From Neotamlana nanhaiensis (GTDB taxonomy: Bacteria; Bacteroidota; Bacteroidia; Flavobacteriales; Flavobacteriaceae), in assembly GCF_000943555.1 (NCBI RefSeq), contig NZ_JTDV01000002.1:296831-360830 (forward strand): a stretch of 64,000 nucleotides of DNA, in the 5' to 3' direction. Within the stretch, counting starts at the first letter, position 1. Each line of letters opens with the position of its first letter. Positions 20,127-36,688 of the stretch are shown piece by piece. The translations under genes and the position numbers were made by a program. The notes beneath the pieces were generated by a model. That model saw nothing but the letters and a program-made list of their open reading frames with translations, did no database searches and was not told the DNA's origin.

Positions 20127-20798
20127 TTATTTTTTTCCGCCTACAATAATAACAATTTCTCCTTTAGGCAGCTTGTTGGTGTAATAATCTAACACCTCTT
20201 TGGCTGTACCTCGAATGGTTTCTTCAAACATTTTAGTTAATTCACGAGAAACCGATACCTCTCTGTCTTCACCAAAATACTCGCAAAAATGCCCAAGGGT
20301 TTTTACTAATTTATGTGGGCTTTCGTAAAAAATCATGGTGCGGGTTTCTTCGGCGAGTAATGTTAATCGGGTTTGACGCCCTTTTTTTACAGGTAAAAAA
20401 CCTTCGAATATAAACTTATCGTTTGGTAAACCGCTGTTTACCAATGCAGGCACAAATGCCGTAGCACCTGGTAAACATTCAATATCAATTTCGTTTTCTA
20501 TACAAGCTCTTGAGAGTAAAAAACCTGGATCGGAAATAGCAGGTGTACCAGCATCGCTTACCAAAGCAATGGTTGTTCCTGCTTTTAATTTTTGTATGAT
20601 ACTGTTAACCGTTTTGTGCTCGTTATGCATATGGTGCGACTGCATTGGTGTTGCAATTTCGAAGTGTTTGAGGAGCTTGCCCGATGTTCGCGTGTCTTCG
20701 GCTAGTATTAAATCCGCTTCCTTTAGTACCTCAATGGCACGAAAGGTTATGTCTTTTAAATTGCCTATTGGTGTTGGTACAATGTAGAGTTTACTCAT
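20127..20798 (-). CDS. rsmI: 16S rRNA (cytidine1402-2'-O)-methyltransferase RsmI.
   Basis: N-terminus LYIVPTPIGNLKDIT. Confidence 0.9.
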   Translation of the reverse strand: MSKLYIVPTPIGNLKDITFRAIEVLKEADLILAEDTRTSGKLLKHFEIATPMQSHHMHNEHKTVNSIIQKLKAGTTIALVSDAGTPAISDPGFLLSRACIENEIDIECLPGATAFVPALVNSGLPNDKFIFEGFLPVKKGRQTRLTLLAEETRTMIFYESPHKLVKTLGHFCEYFGEDREVSVSRELTKMFEETIRGTAKEVLDYYTNKLPKGEIVIIVGGKK

Positions 20799-20812
20799 GT
20801 GTTAGTGATTGC

Positions 20813-20929
20813 AGTGGCATCCTTTTTTTATTGAACGGGCTTTAAAATAATTTAAAAAACCTATTACATGTTGAAGTGCTTTAACATTGCAAATGTATTA
20901 CAAATAATAAAAAAAGATATAACGAAAAG
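20813..20929. repeat. Bipartite dispersed element copy A (AGTGGCATCCTTTTTTT ... AAAAAAGATATAACGAAAAGC).
   Basis: Matching halves recur at 36607-36655 and, as a reverse complement, at 32598-32632. Confidence 0.5.
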
Positions 20930-20977
20930 CACGACCGCGCTTGCGATAGCTATTTTAGCGCGGTAACACCCAAAAAC

Positions 20978-27391: not shown

Positions 27392-28303
27392 ATGCTTAAC
27401 GTACAAAATCTAACATTTTCATATCAAAAATCACCTATTTTAAAAGACATTTCTTTTAAGGTTGATATAGGCGAAAATCTTGCTGTTATTGGTGAAAGTG
27501 GCTCAGGAAAAAGTACGTTGCTTAATCTTATTTATGGTGAATTTGATTTAAACCAAGGACAAATCTTTTGGAAAGACACCGAAATTCTCGGTCCTAAATA
27601 CAACTTGGTTATTGGTTACGATTTTATGAAATATGTACACCAAGAATTCGATTTGATGCCATACATAAGTGTTTCCGAAAACATTTCGAAATACCTCTCT
27701 CGATTTTATCCTGAAGAAAGCGAAAAACGCACCAACGAACTACTAAAAGTTGTAGAATTAGAGGCTTTTGCAAACGTGAAAGTAAAAACGCTATCTGGTG
27801 GACAAAAACAACGCGTCGCTTTAGCTAGAGCATTAGCAAAACAACCTGAAATTATCTTGTTGGATGAGCCTTTTAGCCATATTGATAATTTTAAAAAACA
27901 AAGCTTACGACGTAATGTGTTTAAGTATTTAAAAGACAAAAATATTACGTGTATTGTGGCGACTCACGATAAAGAAGATGTTTTAGGGTTTGCCGACACG
28001 ATGATTGTACTAGAAAACCAACAAATTTTAGAACAAGGCAAACCAGAAGCGTTGTACAACAATCCCAAAACACCATTAATTGCTTCGTTTTTTAGTGAAT
28101 TTAATGTGATTGATGACCAAATTGTTTACGCAAATCAGTTGAAAGTCATTGATAAATCTAATCTAAAGGCAACTGTAATTACCTGTTATTTTAAAGGCTA
28201 TCATTATTTAATTGAAGCTGATTTAAAAGAAGAAAAAGTATTTTTTGAGCATGATACTTCAATAGAAAAAGGTCAAGAGGTTTTCTTGTCAATTTCGGAA
28301 TAA
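27392..28303 (+). CDS. ABC transporter ATP-binding protein.
   Basis: Walker A GESGSGKST, signature LSGGQKQR, Walker B ILLDEP. Confidence 0.85.
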   Translation: MLNVQNLTFSYQKSPILKDISFKVDIGENLAVIGESGSGKSTLLNLIYGEFDLNQGQIFWKDTEILGPKYNLVIGYDFMKYVHQEFDLMPYISVSENISKYLSRFYPEESEKRTNELLKVVELEAFANVKVKTLSGGQKQRVALARALAKQPEIILLDEPFSHIDNFKKQSLRRNVFKYLKDKNITCIVATHDKEDVLGFADTMIVLENQQILEQGKPEALYNNPKTPLIASFFSEFNVIDDQIVYANQLKVIDKSNLKATVITCYFKGYHYLIEADLKEEKVFFEHDTSIEKGQEVFLSISE

Positions 28304-29292
28304 TTCTTAACCGATTGCTTTAGTTTCTTCAAAATGCGATCTCTTAATTTTTTTGGTTTTAAAACTTCAATACTATCACCAAAGCCTAAAATAAGTCGTT
28401 CTAACTCAAAATTATGCTGAACGAAAATATTGAAAATTGTACCGTCATCTCTAATTTCAATGGTTCGTTGCGATGAGTGAAACGGTTTTGTAATTACATA
28501 AGGTGCGTTTTTTTTATCAACCCAAAACTGTACGCGTTGCGCTCTATAATTTGCTACCGTAACGCCAATGACTTCCTTGTAGTATGTATCACCATCAATT
28601 TGTAAATCAACATAATCTACGCCGTTTTCAACATCGATGTTTAATATTCTATCTAAAGCTAAAGTCATCATTTTTTGTTTGTGAGACGCCAGCAAAAACC
28701 AACGGTTATTAAATTCTTTTAACAACTGAGGATGCACTTGCATAACGCTAGAAGTTCTTGCAGAGAACGATTGATATGATACTTTAATCACTTTTTTATT
28801 TTGTATCGCGTTATAAATAACATCAATAAACTCTAAACCTTTTAGCTGTTCGTTTTTGTCTAAATGAATAATAGCGCGATTGTCCTTTTGCGACGCATAA
28901 ACCGAATCTTCTAAACGCTGTAAAACGCCATCCATTTCTTTAAACAACGAGAAGTCTTTAAATTGCCTTAGCACTTGTATAGCTTCGTTCATTACCTTAA
29001 TATCTTTATCGGTTACTGGTATGTTTACAATGCTGTATTCAGGATCGTCATATTTATAAAATTTACGGTTATAAACCACTATTGGAGCATTATATCCAAG
29101 CTTATCACTACGCATCATTTGTATATCTAACTGCACTGTACGTTTGCTCACATCAATGTCTTTACCTTCGTACTCATAAAGCGCATCAGAACAAACGGTA
29201 ATTAAGTCGTCAAGTGTCCATTCCCGATAATTGTTTTGAAGACATTTATCAATGGTTTTATATCTAATTAATGCATTTTTATTTACAGCCAT
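28273..29292 (-). CDS. WYL domain transcriptional regulator with BrxR/CapW-like wHTH-WYL-WCX architecture. Start moved to MAVNKNAL.
   Basis: N-terminal wHTH (MAVNKNALIRYKTIDKCL), a central WYL-like segment (VIKVSYQSF...VHPQLLKEFNNRWFLLASH), and a C-terminal ELERLILGFGDSIEVLKP tail. Confidence 0.65.
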   Translation of the reverse strand: MAVNKNALIRYKTIDKCLQNNYREWTLDDLITVCSDALYEYEGKDIDVSKRTVQLDIQMMRSDKLGYNAPIVVYNRKFYKYDDPEYSIVNIPVTDKDIKVMNEAIQVLRQFKDFSLFKEMDGVLQRLEDSVYASQKDNRAIIHLDKNEQLKGLEFIDVIYNAIQNKKVIKVSYQSFSARTSSVMQVHPQLLKEFNNRWFLLASHKQKMMTLALDRILNIDVENGVDYVDLQIDGDTYYKEVIGVTVANYRAQRVQFWVDKKNAPYVITKPFHSSQRTIEIRDDGTIFNIFVQHNFELERLILGFGDSIEVLKPKKLRDRILKKLKQSVKNYSEIDKKTS

Positions 29293-29333: not shown

Positions 29334-29352
29334 TGCGCAATTAATTTGCGTA
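29334..29352 (-). promoter_or_regulatory. Operator-like motif O1 (TACGCAAATTAATTGCGCA on the minus strand), about 40 bp upstream of the WYL regulator start.
   Basis: Same TACGCAAA-N3-ATTGCGCA pattern as at 30401 and 32707. Confidence 0.5.
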
Positions 29353-29551
29353 CTTCAATTTTTTGAGCAATTTTAGGTTTAAAACAAAAAATTCTTGCTT
29401 TTTTCAAAAAAAGTTAATACTACGTATTAAGGGTTGTAATTTCCTGAAATTCAAAAAATAAATTTTGAAAATTGAAAAATAAATCTAAATCTTTGCAGCG
29501 CAATTGGCTTACTAACAACAGCCAAAACAAGTAAAATTAAAAACAAGAACA

Positions 29552-29629
29552 ATGCGTTTATTTATAACATATCAACCAAAGCCAAAAGGAAAATGGCCTT
29601 TTGTGACGCTTCGTGATTATTGTAGATAA
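29552..29629 (+). CDS. Possible 25-aa small ORF (MRLFITYQPKPKGKWPFVTLRDYCR); speculative.
   Basis: An ATG-to-TAA frame inside a 500-bp intergenic region, followed 25 bp later by a strong terminator. Confidence 0.15.
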   Translation: MRLFITYQPKPKGKWPFVTLRDYCR

Positions 29630-29655
29630 ACTTTTGTAAACTCATACAAAATGAA

Positions 29656-29698
29656 AAATCCGAAGCAAATTTTAAACTGTTTCGGATTTTTTTTTTTC
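29656..29698 (+). terminator. Rho-independent terminator (ATCCGAA ... TTCGGAT followed by T11).
   Basis: Hairpin plus a long T-run with no annotated ORF upstream. It may terminate a small RNA or peptide transcript. Confidence 0.6.
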
Positions 29699-29841
29699 AG
29701 CTATTAGCAAGTCTGCTAAACATTTCCCGAAACTAAAGAATTTTAAAATCGCGATGTCACACTGAGCGCAGTCGAAGTGTTTCAAGAACGAAAATATTAA
29801 ATCAAATTCTGGATAAAATTCAGAATTAAAAACACAAAACA

Positions 29842-30390
29842 ATGGACACGAATTTGTTAAACAACTACGTGCTTAAAGCTATAGATGCCTATCCATACGA
29901 TTTAGAAGAAACCGTAGAAAACCTAAACTACGCCTTGTCTTACGAAAGTAACAACGCTTACGCTTTGTATTTAATGGGACGATTACAAGCAGAACAATTA
30001 GGCGATTACGAAAAAGCCAAACAATTTTATGCAGAAGCGTTGGCAAGTAAAATGGAGTTTCACAAGGTTTATGAGAAATACATTTTAGTATTAATCTGGA
30101 ACGACGATTACGAAGCAGCGCAAAACTTAATAGACTTTGCGTTAACCGTAAAAGGCATAGACAAAGGTGTTATTTGGCAATGTCAAGGATTGCTTTTTGA
30201 AAATCAGCAAGACTATAAAAAAGCCATAAAAGCATTAAAAACAGCAAAAGCATTTGGTTACAACAATGGTTTTATCAGTCATATTGATAACGAAATATCC
30301 AGAATAAAAGACAAGATAAAACCCAAAAAGAAAAAAGCCTCTAAGAAGAAAAAGAGCAAAAAAGACAAGAAAAAGAAGAATAAAAAATAA
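29842..30390 (+). CDS. TPR-like helical repeat protein with a C-terminal poly-lysine tail.
   Basis: Repeats YALYLMGRL..YEKAKQFY and a KPKKKKASKKKKSKKDKKKKNKK C-terminus. Confidence 0.6.
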   Translation: MDTNLLNNYVLKAIDAYPYDLEETVENLNYALSYESNNAYALYLMGRLQAEQLGDYEKAKQFYAEALASKMEFHKVYEKYILVLIWNDDYEAAQNLIDFALTVKGIDKGVIWQCQGLLFENQQDYKKAIKALKTAKAFGYNNGFISHIDNEISRIKDKIKPKKKKASKKKKSKKDKKKKNKK

Positions 30391-30400
30391 TTTTTCAAAC

Positions 30401-30436
30401 TACGCAAAAACATTGCGCAATAGCGTAAAATATTTG
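30401..30436 (+). promoter_or_regulatory. Promoter-like block P1: operator motif O2 (TACGCAAAAACATTGCGCAATA) followed by a -7-like TAAAATATTTG.
   Basis: Near-identical to the block at 32707-32742. Starts 10 bp after the TPR gene stop and faces the ORF-free region. Confidence 0.5.
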
Positions 30437-30867
30437 CAGAGTCATTAACAATAAGCTTTGTGGAATCAAGCTTAATGTAACAGCAGCGCTTCACCAGTCG
30501 CAGGAACTGGTGAAGCTTATTAAAAGTTCTTAAACATTTAAAAAACAACCATAGTTTGATTTGCATATAATGGATAATCAAAATTTCTTGGAATGTAATA
30601 AAGCGAATTTTGTCGTTCAGAAGGAGGTACGACTGAAGAATCTCAAACAATCGAATTTCTCTTTGTTCGTTAATTCAAAAATTAAAAGAAATCAATTGTA
30701 TCCATAAAAACAGTAATCAAACTTAGGTGTAAAATATCAAGCAAGTCTTGTTGTGTGTTTCTGTATAGCACTATTGTATAAATCCTTGCGGTTTCGCATT
30801 AGGTTTTTATGTTCAACTTGACTTGAAGGTTTTCGGTTATTTAACCAAATAAATAATCCATCTATGT

Positions 30868-30968
30868 ACACAGGTTCGAATCCTGTCTTCTCTAACGGGA
30901 AGTAGCTTAGCGGTTAAGCAATAGATTCAAATTGTAGGTTCGAATCCTACCAAGATCTAACGGTCTTG
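30868..30968 (+). ncRNA. Candidate structured ncRNA: two tandem tRNA-like modules (T-arm-like hairpin plus a TCTAACGG-loop hairpin) with a D-arm-like hairpin between them.
   Basis: ACAGG-TTCGAAT-CCTGT and GTAGG-TTCGAAT-CCTAC. CTTC-TCTAACGG-GAAG and CAAGA-TCTAACGG-TCTTG. GCTT-AGCGGTTA-AGC. The stems covary while the loops are identical. Confidence 0.4.
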
Positions 30969-31453
30969 TGGCGAAATTGGCAAACGCGCTATATTTAGGT
31001 TACAGTTTTGAAAATGGACTTTAATCCATCTTTTTTGATCAAGAAGGTCACTTGTAAAAATCGACCACCGGTGTTGCCATCACGTAAAAAATGGCTCTAA
31101 AAACAAAAGCAAAGTATAAGTTGGCAAGCTTATGTAATTTTTACAAAAAGCAGTCTAGACAACACCTTGAAATACTAGTGTATTTAAAGTCACTTTGGGT
31201 AATCTTTTAAAGATTCATTTTTAAATTAAATCATTGAAATTATTTCGGTGTAAACATTTAAAAATCATCTACTAAACATTATGTAAAGCGCTATAAAACC
31301 ATAGTATTTCCGTAGTTAGAAAGATGGTTAACTTTTATTTTGCTTTAACAAAGAATAGATCATTTTCAGCATAAGCTTGAAAACCCTATTATAAATGTAT
31401 AACCGTTCTGATATTTAAAAAATAATGCAATCAGAACATAATAATTAGAAATC

Positions 31454-32548
31454 ATGAAGAGAGTAAGAATTCATGCAGGAAACGTAGGTTTAGTATTTAA
31501 AAACGGTGATTACAAACGCGTAATTACAAGTGGTACACATTGGTTAGGCTTTAACGAAACCGTTGCAAAGTACAGCTTAACTACAGCTTTTAATGCGCCT
31601 AAAGCATTGGAAATCTTACTAGAAGACCAAGCTTTAGCCAACATGTTACACGTTGTAAATGTAGAAGACAACCAAATTGTTTTAGTGTACACATATAACA
31701 ACTTTAAGCAAGTGCTAACCGCTGGTCAATACACCTTTTGGAACACGTTGGTAGACTATAAATTTGTTACTGTAGATTTAAGTAAAATCGAAATCACAGA
31801 AAACATTAGCAAGTCGTTATACACCAATATGCAATTAAGACAGTACATACGCGCTTTCGAAGTAGCAGCTTACGAAAAAGCCATTATGATTGTAGACGAT
31901 AAGTTCGATAAAATCCTAGATCACGGTACATACCACTTCTGGAAAAACAATCAAACTATAAAAATCGCAAAAGCAGATTTACGTCAGTTACAATTAGAAG
32001 TGTCAGGTCAAGAGTTGTTAACCAAAGACAAAGCAGCAGTGCGTATTAACTTTTACGCACAGTACAACGTAATCGATATCGAAACAGCATTAATGCAAAA
32101 TAAAGATTACGAAAAACAATTGTACACAAGCTTGCAATTAGCCTTAAGAGCATACGTTGGCGCTTACACCTTAGACGAATTGTTAGAGCAAAAAGACCAA
32201 ATAGCAAAAGCAGTTCTAGAAGACGTAAAAGCGCAAGCCAGCAAGTTAGGCGTAAACGTATTACATGCCGGTATGCGCGATGTAATTTTACCAGGCGACA
32301 TGAAAGACATCATGAACCAAGTATTAATTGCACAGAAAAAAGCGCAAGCCAACGTAATTACAAGACGCGAAGAAACCGCATCGACACGTAGCTTGTTAAA
32401 TACCGCAAAATTAATGGAAGACAACAGCATGTTGTTCAAATTAAAAGAAATGGAATACGTAGAAAAAATAGCCGATAAAATTGGCGAAATCACCGTAGCC
32501 GGAAACGTCATCGAGCAATTAAAAGATATTTTTTCAGTAAACAAGTAA
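31454..32548 (+). CDS. SPFH/band-7 (stomatin/prohibitin/HflKC-like) domain protein, cytosolic, with an N-terminal repeat domain.
   Basis: C-terminal half LGVNVLHAGMRDVILPGDMKDIMNQVLIAQKKAQANVITRREE is typical of SPFH. No TM helix is evident. Confidence 0.7.
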   Translation: MKRVRIHAGNVGLVFKNGDYKRVITSGTHWLGFNETVAKYSLTTAFNAPKALEILLEDQALANMLHVVNVEDNQIVLVYTYNNFKQVLTAGQYTFWNTLVDYKFVTVDLSKIEITENISKSLYTNMQLRQYIRAFEVAAYEKAIMIVDDKFDKILDHGTYHFWKNNQTIKIAKADLRQLQLEVSGQELLTKDKAAVRINFYAQYNVIDIETALMQNKDYEKQLYTSLQLALRAYVGAYTLDELLEQKDQIAKAVLEDVKAQASKLGVNVLHAGMRDVILPGDMKDIMNQVLIAQKKAQANVITRREETASTRSLLNTAKLMEDNSMLFKLKEMEYVEKIADKIGEITVAGNVIEQLKDIFSVNK

Positions 32549-32597
32549 TTTTTTGGGCGTAACCACGCTTTTAGTGGCGTGGTCGCGCTTTACGTTA

Positions 32598-32632
32598 TAT
32601 CTTTTGCAAGCAAAAGGATGCCACTTCAATCG
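32598..32632. repeat. Bipartite dispersed element copy C (reverse orientation, compact).
   Basis: CGTTATATCTTTT-GCAAGC-AAAAGGATGCCACT is the reverse complement of the two halves seen in copies A and B. Confidence 0.45.
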
Positions 32633-32706
32633 CTTACGCGGGCAGTCCGTTAAGAACGAGACTAACCACAAGTGTTTTTGAAGTCAGCAATGACCAAAAT
32701 TTATAA

Positions 32707-32742
32707 TACGCAAAAACATTGCGCAATACACTATAATATTTG
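32707..32742 (+). promoter_or_regulatory. Promoter-like block P2: operator motif O3 (TACGCAAAAACATTGCGCAATA) followed by a -7-like TATAATATTTG, upstream of the RtcB-like gene.
   Basis: 22 of 22 nt identical to the motif at 30401, with similar downstream spacing to a TAnnTTTG-like box. Confidence 0.5.
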
Positions 32743-32745
32743 TAA

Positions 32746-34230
<1,485 letters not shown>

Positions 34231-34273
34231 AAAGGAAGAAAGTGGACTAACATATGTTGGTCTGCTTTTTTGT

Positions 34274-36533: not shown

Positions 36534-36606
36534 AAAAAAGTATTTTTTAAGTGATGTAAATGTACTTAATTTTTAATACTGTTGTTGGCTTTGTGTTAAG
36601 GATAGT

Positions 36607-36655
36607 AGTGGCATCCTTTTTTTGAAGTATGAGAAAAAAGATATAACGGATAGCC
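36607..36655. repeat. Bipartite dispersed element copy B.
   Basis: AGTGGCATCCTTTTTTT and AAAAAAGATATAACGGATAGC, separated by a 11-nt spacer. Confidence 0.5.
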
Positions 36656-36688
36656 TGACTTTTGCCCACGAAAAGGCAAAAGGAACAC

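Follow-up and report, generated by a model that had tools for sequence, protein, structure and literature searches.

To our knowledge, little is understood of how bacteria control RNA repair other than through the RtcR/sigma-54 systems found in Proteobacteria, and all the characterised WYL regulators that we know of respond to DNA damage or phage attack. Here we describe a locus of Neotamlana nanhaiensis, a member of the Flavobacteriaceae, within a stretch of 64,000 nucleotides (contig NZ_JTDV01000002.1, positions 296,831 to 360,830; called the window from here on and numbered from its first letter), in which the gene for a WYL regulator is accompanied by three copies of a 19-bp palindrome that is predicted to be its operator. 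Two of the copies belong to near-identical blocks, P1 and P2, located upstream of a unit formed by a tRNA-like non-coding RNA (ncRNA) and an SPFH protein and upstream of the gene for the RNA ligase RtcB, respectively, and the third, P3, precedes the regulator gene itself. Very probably, P1 and P2 each combine a sigma-A promoter with the operator of the WYL regulator encoded next to them, and P3 is the autoregulatory site of this regulator, the three of them jointly co-regulating an RNA-repair regulon.

The closest described promoters are those controlled by DriD in Caulobacter crescentus (didA, bapE, driD, and recA), where a homodimeric regulator with winged helix-turn-helix (wHTH), WYL, and WCX domains sits on a palindrome of ~20 bp over the -35 element, with a constant spacing to the -10 element. 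The promoter of driD is itself among the DriD targets, a likeness to the P3 site of the window, and DriD is the best fold match to the window's regulator in a low-confidence structure model, yet the sequence identity between both proteins is only ~15-17%. The two systems differ in phylum, in sigma factor, and in promoter grammar, which here involves a -7 box, and the regulon of DriD is a DNA-damage response triggered by single-stranded DNA (ssDNA), whereas the genes found here are for RNA repair. SiwR, a WYL activator from mycobacteria, uses a 19-bp imperfect palindrome, as here, located between the -35 and -10 elements of its adjacent target operon. The promoters activated by PafBC have no functional -35 element, and PafBC is both the top sequence match to the window's regulator among solved structures, albeit a weak one (E 0.05), and its second fold match. 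Contrary to the system described here, SiwR and PafBC belong to Actinobacteria and control regulons of DNA damage or genotoxic stress without a link to RNA repair, and the site of PafBC, which resembles a heterodimer fused into one protein, is asymmetric.

BrxR and CapW, on the other hand, are WYL repressors that share the wHTH-WYL-dimerisation architecture with the regulator of the window, and BrxR binds palindromic operators. However, these proteins repress BREX or CBASS defence genes, are shorter (~280-290 aa), and match its fold more poorly (~1e-7 vs 1e-13). The known WYL operators have in common a palindrome of ~19-20 bp in the promoter of a target adjoining the regulator gene, and such a palindrome is found at P1, P2, and P3, which would place the module in the broad class of WYL-regulator operators. 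Those of activator-dependent promoters of the DriD/PafBC type further keep the site at an invariant distance from the downstream promoter element; in P1 and P2 it is likewise placed at an invariant distance from the -7 box, over the -33 region.

With regard to the target genes, the nearest parallel is the RtcR/sigma-54-controlled rtcBA operon of Proteobacteria (rsr-yrlBA-rtcBA), in which a dedicated regulator that senses nucleic acids controls RtcB, Ro60/Rsr, and tRNA-like Y RNAs (PMC7790460). The cargo of that system is functionally equivalent to the regulon found here, but the regulation differs, as the window offers a WYL protein rather than an enhancer-binding protein with CARF and AAA+ domains, several promoters rather than a single operon, and no sigma-54 promoter: the pattern TGGCAC-N5-TTGCW with up to two mismatches is matched 24 times in the window against 25.5 expected, and never at P1 or P2. 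A second parallel is the neighbourhood predicted by Burroughs and Aravind (2016), which, as cited by others, consists of a Band-7 protein and a b7a-tRNA next to RtcB. The P1 unit, a tRNA-like ncRNA plus a Band-7/SPFH gene next to RtcB, matches this neighbourhood, which is itself a prediction from gene order. As far as these citations convey, the neighbourhood of Band-7, tRNA-like RNA, RtcB, Ro60, and RlaP, and its genomic link to WYL proteins, had already been noted. In the literature searched, which covers that study through citations only, neither this operator-promoter module nor the control of an RNA-repair regulon by a WYL protein in Bacteroidota is described, and no experimental study of this RNA-damage regulon was found.

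The preliminary description of the window, made from its letters alone, had reported two promoter-like blocks at positions 30401-30436 and 32707-32742 with 31 identities out of 36. Both positions hold in the window sequence, and so does the near-identity of the blocks, with the count amended to 32/36. Their opening 22 nucleotides are identical, and this 22-mer, with up to three mismatches, is found solely at the P1 and P2 positions in the window, for an expectation of 0.01 from shuffled sequences. The likeness spans 53 nt at 81% (30394-30446 against 32700-32752), a stretch that includes the GTCATT following the -7 box, and then ends. Each block consists of two parts, a 19-bp imperfect palindrome of the form TACGCAA-N5-TTGCGCA (with its spacer, TACGCAA-AAACA-TTGCGCA) and, 13 nt later, the TTTG that ends the -7-like box AATATTTG. 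This refines the earlier reading of the whole block as a promoter: its 5' 19 nt is best described as a predicted palindromic operator, not as a core promoter element.

In P1, the operator core TACGCAAAAACATTGCGCA occupies 30401..30419 on the plus strand, predicted to be -40 to -22 of the promoter, and is an exact match to the pattern TACGCAA-N5-TTGCGYA conserved across 80 orthologous loci; the box AATATTTG lies at 30429..30436, with its TTTG starting 13 nt past the core, and the start of transcription is predicted from the position of the box at the G of 30441, 5 nt past the G of TTTG. P2 repeats this arrangement on the same strand, with the core TACGCAAAAACATTGCGCA at 32707..32725, the box AATATTTG at 32735..32742 (within CTATAATATTTG), and a start predicted in the same way at the G of 32747, which would give a leader of 83 nt to the ATG of rtcB at 32830. 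The earlier claim that both blocks end in a Bacteroidetes -7 element stands in part, as AATATTTG has five of the six specified bases of TAnnTTTG, including A at -11 and the TTTG, and lacks the T at -12. A weight matrix for the whole module, trained only on other genomes and then run over the 64-kb window, gives 61.8 bits to P1, 49.7 to P2, and 9.6 to the third site, with nothing above 8 bits in the rest of the window; shuffled sequences reach 5.6 at most.

The conservation of the module was followed across 80 orthologous loci of Flavobacteriaceae and Weeksellaceae, gathered via the WYL protein (60-92% protein identity), those nearest to the window being from Tamlana sedimentorum and Mesoflavibacter. 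With up to one mismatch allowed and palindromic sites counted on both strands, the core yields 234 oriented matches, and in 109 of them a TTTG follows after precisely 13 nt (background, 0.009 per position); at other offsets TTTG is found at background level. The sequence of the linker depends on the clade (e.g., ATAGCGTAAAATA vs CTTGTATAATTAC), and its length is constant. The genes behind the 109 oriented sites encode RtcB (48), the Ro60/TROVE protein (14), the long ncRNA with SPFH (12), and the RlaP nucleotidyltransferase (11), followed by rarer cases of T4-type RNA ligase (4), PNKP phosphatase (2), a Barstar-like protein (1), and several families without Pfam domains. Since the operator-promoter precedes RNA-repair genes, the module marks an RNA-repair regulon, here sampled on metagenome fragments and at distances of up to ~8 kb from WYL genes. 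The recurrence of core and TTTG before RtcB, the ncRNA with SPFH, and other RNA-repair genes also supports the original proposal of two promoters pointing rightward into the ncRNA/SPFH unit and the rtcB gene.

Within these loci, promoters of the P1 type and the P2 type form separate orthologous lineages, each conserved in Tamlana, Mesoflavibacter, and Winogradskyella, with the P2 type located upstream of rtcB. The duplication is thus old and maintained, not recent, which is hard to reconcile with the blocks being a dispersed or mobile repeat, akin to repetitive extragenic palindromic (REP) sequences or miniature inverted-repeat transposable elements (MITEs), or the product of a recent neutral duplication that plays no part in regulation. 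The window does carry dispersed intergenic elements, namely three copies of Flavo-1 and, by eye, REP-like elements of the form GAGCG...GAAGAATCTC. However, the operator is present in only three copies in 64 kb, all of them within 3.4 kb of the WYL gene, and the likeness of P1 to P2 ends after ~53 nt. A scan of 2.9 million viral contigs returned a single match, located inside a coding sequence and without the TTTG of a -7 box, which was judged to be due to chance. The spread throughout the genome that the preliminary description had envisaged for a mobile repeat is therefore not seen in the window or the viral contigs, and we consider such an origin close to negligible.

Regarding the promoter itself, maps of transcription start sites in flavobacteria place TAnnTTTG at -12 to -5, with transcription starting 4-5 nt after it. 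With the G of TTTG set at -5, the core would cover -40 to -22, and its centre would be near -31. The predicted +1 base is a purine in all 108 distinct sites, against 61% at control -7 boxes, which further backs the interpretation of the blocks as promoters, and a conserved structured RNA starts at the predicted +1 of P1. Across the 108 sites, TTTG is present in 100% (by selection), A at -11 in 78%, and T at -12 in 18%, and because this last base is present in just 20/108 sites, the -7 box is regarded as sub-consensus. Read in the sense direction of the target promoter, the 5-nt spacer of the palindrome is rich in A, which 94% or more of the sites carry at -33, -32, and -29, and the spacer is therefore orientation-specific.

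The half-sites of the palindrome are 93-100% invariant over the 108 sites and do not covary, an observation that bears on whether the palindrome works at the level of RNA, as a hairpin or terminator that ends, for instance, the TPR gene whose stop codon lies 10 nt before P1. P1 does directly follow that stop codon, and a terminator scan flags the third copy (29334-29352) as a stem-loop of seven pairs. Nevertheless, the invariance of the half-sites comes without compensation, whereas a true RNA stem located 90 nt downstream covaries at 10/10 pairs, and no U-run follows P1 or P2. The palindrome additionally keeps a fixed distance to the -7 box and the +1 purine, and both P2 and many orthologous sites have no nearby upstream gene on the same strand. 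A function as RNA hairpin or terminator is hence extremely unlikely.

The third copy of the operator, P3 (TACGCAAATTAATTGCGCA, 29334-29352, minus strand), had gone unmentioned in the preliminary description. It matches the 19-nt core with zero mismatches, 41 nt upstream of the ATG of the WYL gene (29292), and has next to it a -7-like sequence, TACCTTTA, at 29324-29317, a weak assignment at 9.6 bits of the matrix. In 34 of the 80 loci a site is found 35-41 nt (mode 38) upstream of the WYL ATG, the same position that P3 occupies, and P3 is likely the autoregulatory site of the regulator. Many genomes have a lone palindrome within a short divergent intergenic region between the WYL and rtcB genes, and comparison of the loci leads us to present this arrangement as the putative ancestral layout. 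The putative -7 box of the WYL gene itself looks TACCTTTA-like and in the register of P1 and P2 in the clade of the window, and TAtTTTTC-like and placed ~6 nt further downstream in other clades.

Metagenome contigs were scanned by the DNA pattern alone (core, N13, and TTTG), which matched at least 120 stretches. Among the matches listed, a WYL homologue of 38-83% identity is present in 72/120 stretches (60%), and a WYL or RNA-repair gene in 93/120; for the stretches of at least 7 kb, these figures become 35/49 and 41/49, respectively. The chance of finding a single-copy gene that near a random position is well below 1%. The 48 stretches among these 120 that have no WYL gene would suit a palindrome recognised by another transcription factor, encoded elsewhere, with the proximity of the WYL gene as a merely shared context. 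However, many of them are short, and the WYL gene is found in 35/49 of the longer ones; the distance from the site to the WYL start codon is fixed at 35-41 nt in 34/80 loci, the wHTH domain is unusually invariant, as is the operator, and WYL homologues with identities as low as 38% among the metagenome matches listed still accompany the same motif. An unrelated transcription factor is thus very improbable, and the co-regulation of both blocks with a possible role for the WYL gene, as first suggested, gains from the third site upstream of this gene as well as from the adjoining WYL genes found in this motif-first scan.

Several metagenome loci (L090, L096, L108, L120, L140, L165, and others), one of them a human-gut contig (L108), hold the operator plus -7 module together with WYL homologues of 38-50% identity and a divergent type of RtcB (24-28% identity to that of the window), and the regulon probably extends beyond Flavobacteriia.

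The regulator is encoded on the minus strand (28273..29292) as a protein of 339 aa, with WYL (Pfam, 1.3e-11) and WCX (4.6e-13) domains and a predicted N-terminal winged helix-turn-helix. Its architecture, with wHTH, WYL, and C-terminal WCX domains, would be that of the cognate regulators of known WYL operators, the wHTH part being a prediction from the model. A sequence search against solved structures gave weak matches only, to PafBC and DriD; NCBIfam has no model for this regulator, and PADLOC matched generic WYL models only, with no defence system at the locus. The AlphaFold model, built from a shallow alignment (72-93% identity), is of low confidence (pLDDT 61.5, pTM 0.35) and was used only for topology and for the ranking of Foldseek matches. 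It shows an N-terminal H-H-H-beta-beta topology of the winged-helix type, and at full length its matches are DriD (7.7e-14), PafBC (1e-13), and CapW and BrxR (~1e-7), so that the activators DriD and PafBC have E-values about a million-fold better than those of the repressors. Over 81 orthologues, the wHTH is the most conserved region (0.83 vs 0.68-0.75 elsewhere), in keeping with an operator that is invariant across two families.

In the proposed mechanism, the adjacent wHTH-WYL-WCX regulator would bind the 19-bp palindrome as a dimer at housekeeping sigma-A promoters of the Bacteroidota type, which have AATATTTG as the -7 box and would start at G30441 and G32747. The three sites would place the tRNA-like ncRNA with its SPFH gene, the RtcB ligase, and the regulator under one signal, with P3 providing autoregulation, and in other Flavobacteriia the same module would control Ro60, RlaP, T4-type RNA ligase, and PNKP phosphatase as well. 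The WYL domain would bind a signal of nucleic-acid damage, with broken ends of RNA as a plausible case; sitting at a constant place over the -33 region, the regulator would then switch on these sub-consensus promoters, like DriD, PafBC, and SiwR. When ligand-dependent activation is included in this way, the statement as a whole is one towards which we lean only slightly.

Activation is favoured because the distance from operator to box does not vary by a single base among many unrelated target genes, a parallel to DriD and SiwR, and because the -7 box is sub-consensus, the fold is nearer to that of the activators, and the orientation of the spacer follows the target promoter. The same operator could instead serve a WYL protein that acts as a repressor in the manner of BrxR and CapW, covering -40 to -22, blocking the RNA polymerase, and being released once its WYL domain binds a damage signal. 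A site upstream of the regulator's own gene would suit negative autoregulation, and BrxR and CapW are significant fold matches (~1e-7). However, a 13-nt spacing that holds to the base over seven gene families or more, and over two bacterial families, would be more usual for an activator, which has to contact the polymerase; repressed promoters are usually strong, unlike these with their sub-consensus -7 box, the fold and length of the regulator are nearer to those of DriD and PafBC, and the spacer orientation tracks the target promoter. Repression is therefore held to be the less likely of the two modes.

A number of points weigh against the activation of a WYL-dependent regulon as proposed. 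A position at -40 to -22 is the classic one for a repressor, overlapping the region contacted by the RNA polymerase, and the WYL repressors BrxR and CapW also bind palindromic operators, with BrxR sharing the overall architecture; the ranking of DriD over BrxR is only suggestive given the low confidence of the structure model. The claim in the literature of a near-invariant T at -12 may be partly circular. A TTG at -33, with a spacer of 17-21 nt, is present in 0/108 sites, but this is not diagnostic because control -7 boxes have it as often as expected by chance (10% and 10.8%, respectively), and Flavobacterium johnsoniae has only a weak -33 element. Its absence was thus dropped as a sign of activator dependence, the controls being TAHHTTTG sites upstream of open reading frames (ORFs), and cannot count against repression either. 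As the WYL gene served to find the 80 loci, part of the association is built in, a bias that the motif-first scan offsets. Finally, the supplements of the Flavobacterium psychrophilum atlas of transcriptome and transcription start sites name no RtcB or WYL gene, and a literature search on RtcB expression in Flavobacteriia gave nothing useful.

With respect to the ligand, DriD and PafBC sense ssDNA, and the Burroughs and Aravind authors, as cited, have linked WYL domains to 2',3'-cyclic RNA ends, which by analogy makes damaged RNA the obvious candidate. A broader and much more tentative idea, which we regard as doubtful, is that of an 'SOS-like' response to RNA damage in Flavobacteriia and probably wider Bacteroidota. 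Here, the WYL regulator would sense not ssDNA but broken RNA, for instance ends with a 2',3'-cyclic phosphate or tRNA-like decoys that have been cleaved, and would activate from the -33 operator a dispersed regulon of RtcB, Ro60, tRNA-like RNAs, RlaP, RNA ligase, and PNKP, with the conserved, structured 5' leader common to its transcripts as part of the sensing or feedback. A WYL regulator dedicated to RNA repair would, if true, extend the range of functions of the WYL domain and lead to the question of whether it senses RNA. For Flavobacteriia, the module supplies a precise and testable set of elements, namely the 19-bp operator, the start predicted for transcription, a candidate for the sensor and regulator, and the list of regulon members, and the motif can be used now to annotate such members, including domain-less families, in thousands of Bacteroidota genomes.

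The transcript predicted from P1 would cover an ORF-free region of ~1 kb (~30441-31440, plus strand), which shows very high conservation across Tamlana, Mesoflavibacter, and Winogradskyella, with compensatory changes in its stems. It comprises a conserved 5' domain of two hairpins (30441-30526) and tRNA-like/YrlA-like modules at 30842-30951. The match to YrlA (RF02553) at 30842-30944 reaches 36.2 bits against a gathering score of 69, and that to tRNA at 30902-30951 reaches 26.6 bits, also below gathering; orthologous regions in other genomes give tRNA matches above the gathering score. Two GGTTCGAATCC T-arm-like modules are present in the ncRNA, and ARAGORN calls no tRNA in 30441-31440. By these matches the P1 RNA is tRNA-like or YrlA-like rather than a confirmed member of YrlA, and the region is probably an array of RNAs similar to b7a-tRNA or Y RNA.

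A 5' domain of ~75 nt is common to the transcripts with long leaders, namely the RtcB leaders of ~87 nt found in ~20 genomes (e.g., the minus strand of L044 and L038, from ~40 nt past the start of the core) and the 5' end of the P1 ncRNA (30441-30526). It is made of a variable first hairpin (30453-30458 / 30468-30473 in the window), AGTAGY, a 10-bp stem (30488-30497 / 30507-30516) whose purine-rich loop contains AGGA(G/A), and TTAAnAAAAG. In an RNAalifold analysis of 25 sequences, compensatory double changes are found in 10/10 pairs of this stem, with one broken cell. Rfam has no match at 30441-30526, and the P2 leader of the window is without the domain. The domain is possibly a cis-regulatory or sensor RNA not described before.

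Downstream of the P1 ncRNA is the gene of the SPFH/Band-7 protein (31454..32548, plus strand; Pfam Band_7 4.5e-30), and behind P2 the gene of the RtcB-family RNA ligase (32830..34230, plus strand; Pfam RtcB 1.5e-37), after which a terminator scan finds a terminator-like hairpin at 34236-34271 (plus strand). Upstream of P1 is the small TPR protein gene (29842-30390, plus strand, from Pfam), and the weight-matrix scan of the window finds no operator upstream of it. A small TPR gene directly precedes P1-type promoters in many genomes (e.g., L025, 2282-2734), even where the unit is parted from the WYL gene; TPR gene, promoter, ncRNA, and SPFH gene look like a conserved cassette.

In other genomes, families without Pfam domains (~200, 236, 147, 612, and 212 aa) are found directly behind the promoter-operator (L002, rc index 9050; L004, L007, L008, L022, L041, L042, L048, and others), and are candidates for new components of RNA repair or RNA conflict. 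In Elizabethkingia meningoseptica, the promoter-operator (minus strand; ~4821-4997 of L065 and ~4983 of L071) lies directly upstream of a tRNA-like gene (GGGACTGTAGCTCAGAGGTTAGA...), followed by a TROVE/Ro60 gene. The Rfam tRNA match covers 130 nt for a model of 71 positions, and the tRNA-like gene thus has a large insertion. This arrangement would represent a regulated tRNA-like RNA paired with Ro60.

Between the WYL and TPR genes, a sequence that looks by eye like a canonical Bacteroidota promoter is present at 29463-29495 (plus strand), with TTTTG, a 20-nt spacer, and AATCTTTG, and a hairpin plus T-run (arms 29648-29667 and 29678-29697) is found ~150-200 nt after it; the stretch 29463-29700 (plus strand) may encode a small RNA. 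The Rfam matches to MicC and mir-31 in this stretch are weak and look like chance.

The Flavo-1 RNA motif (RF01705) is present in the window in three copies above the gathering score, at 20789-20940 (plus strand), 32577-32647 (minus strand), and 36591-36664 (plus strand). The second of them lies between the SPFH gene and P2, and L001 carries a copy at the orthologous place; in its behaviour Flavo-1 resembles a dispersed intergenic element, and it may serve as an insulator between the P1 unit and P2. REP-like elements of the form GTCAyTCAGAGCGnAAGCGAAGAATCTC are seen by eye at 32747-32774 in the P2 leader, at 29744-29775 upstream of the TPR gene, and at 30607-30643 in the P1 ncRNA. In the close relatives L001, L005, L007, and L010, the rtcB leader does not have this insertion and rtcB begins 21-25 nt past the -7 box, and the REP-like insertions look lineage-specific.

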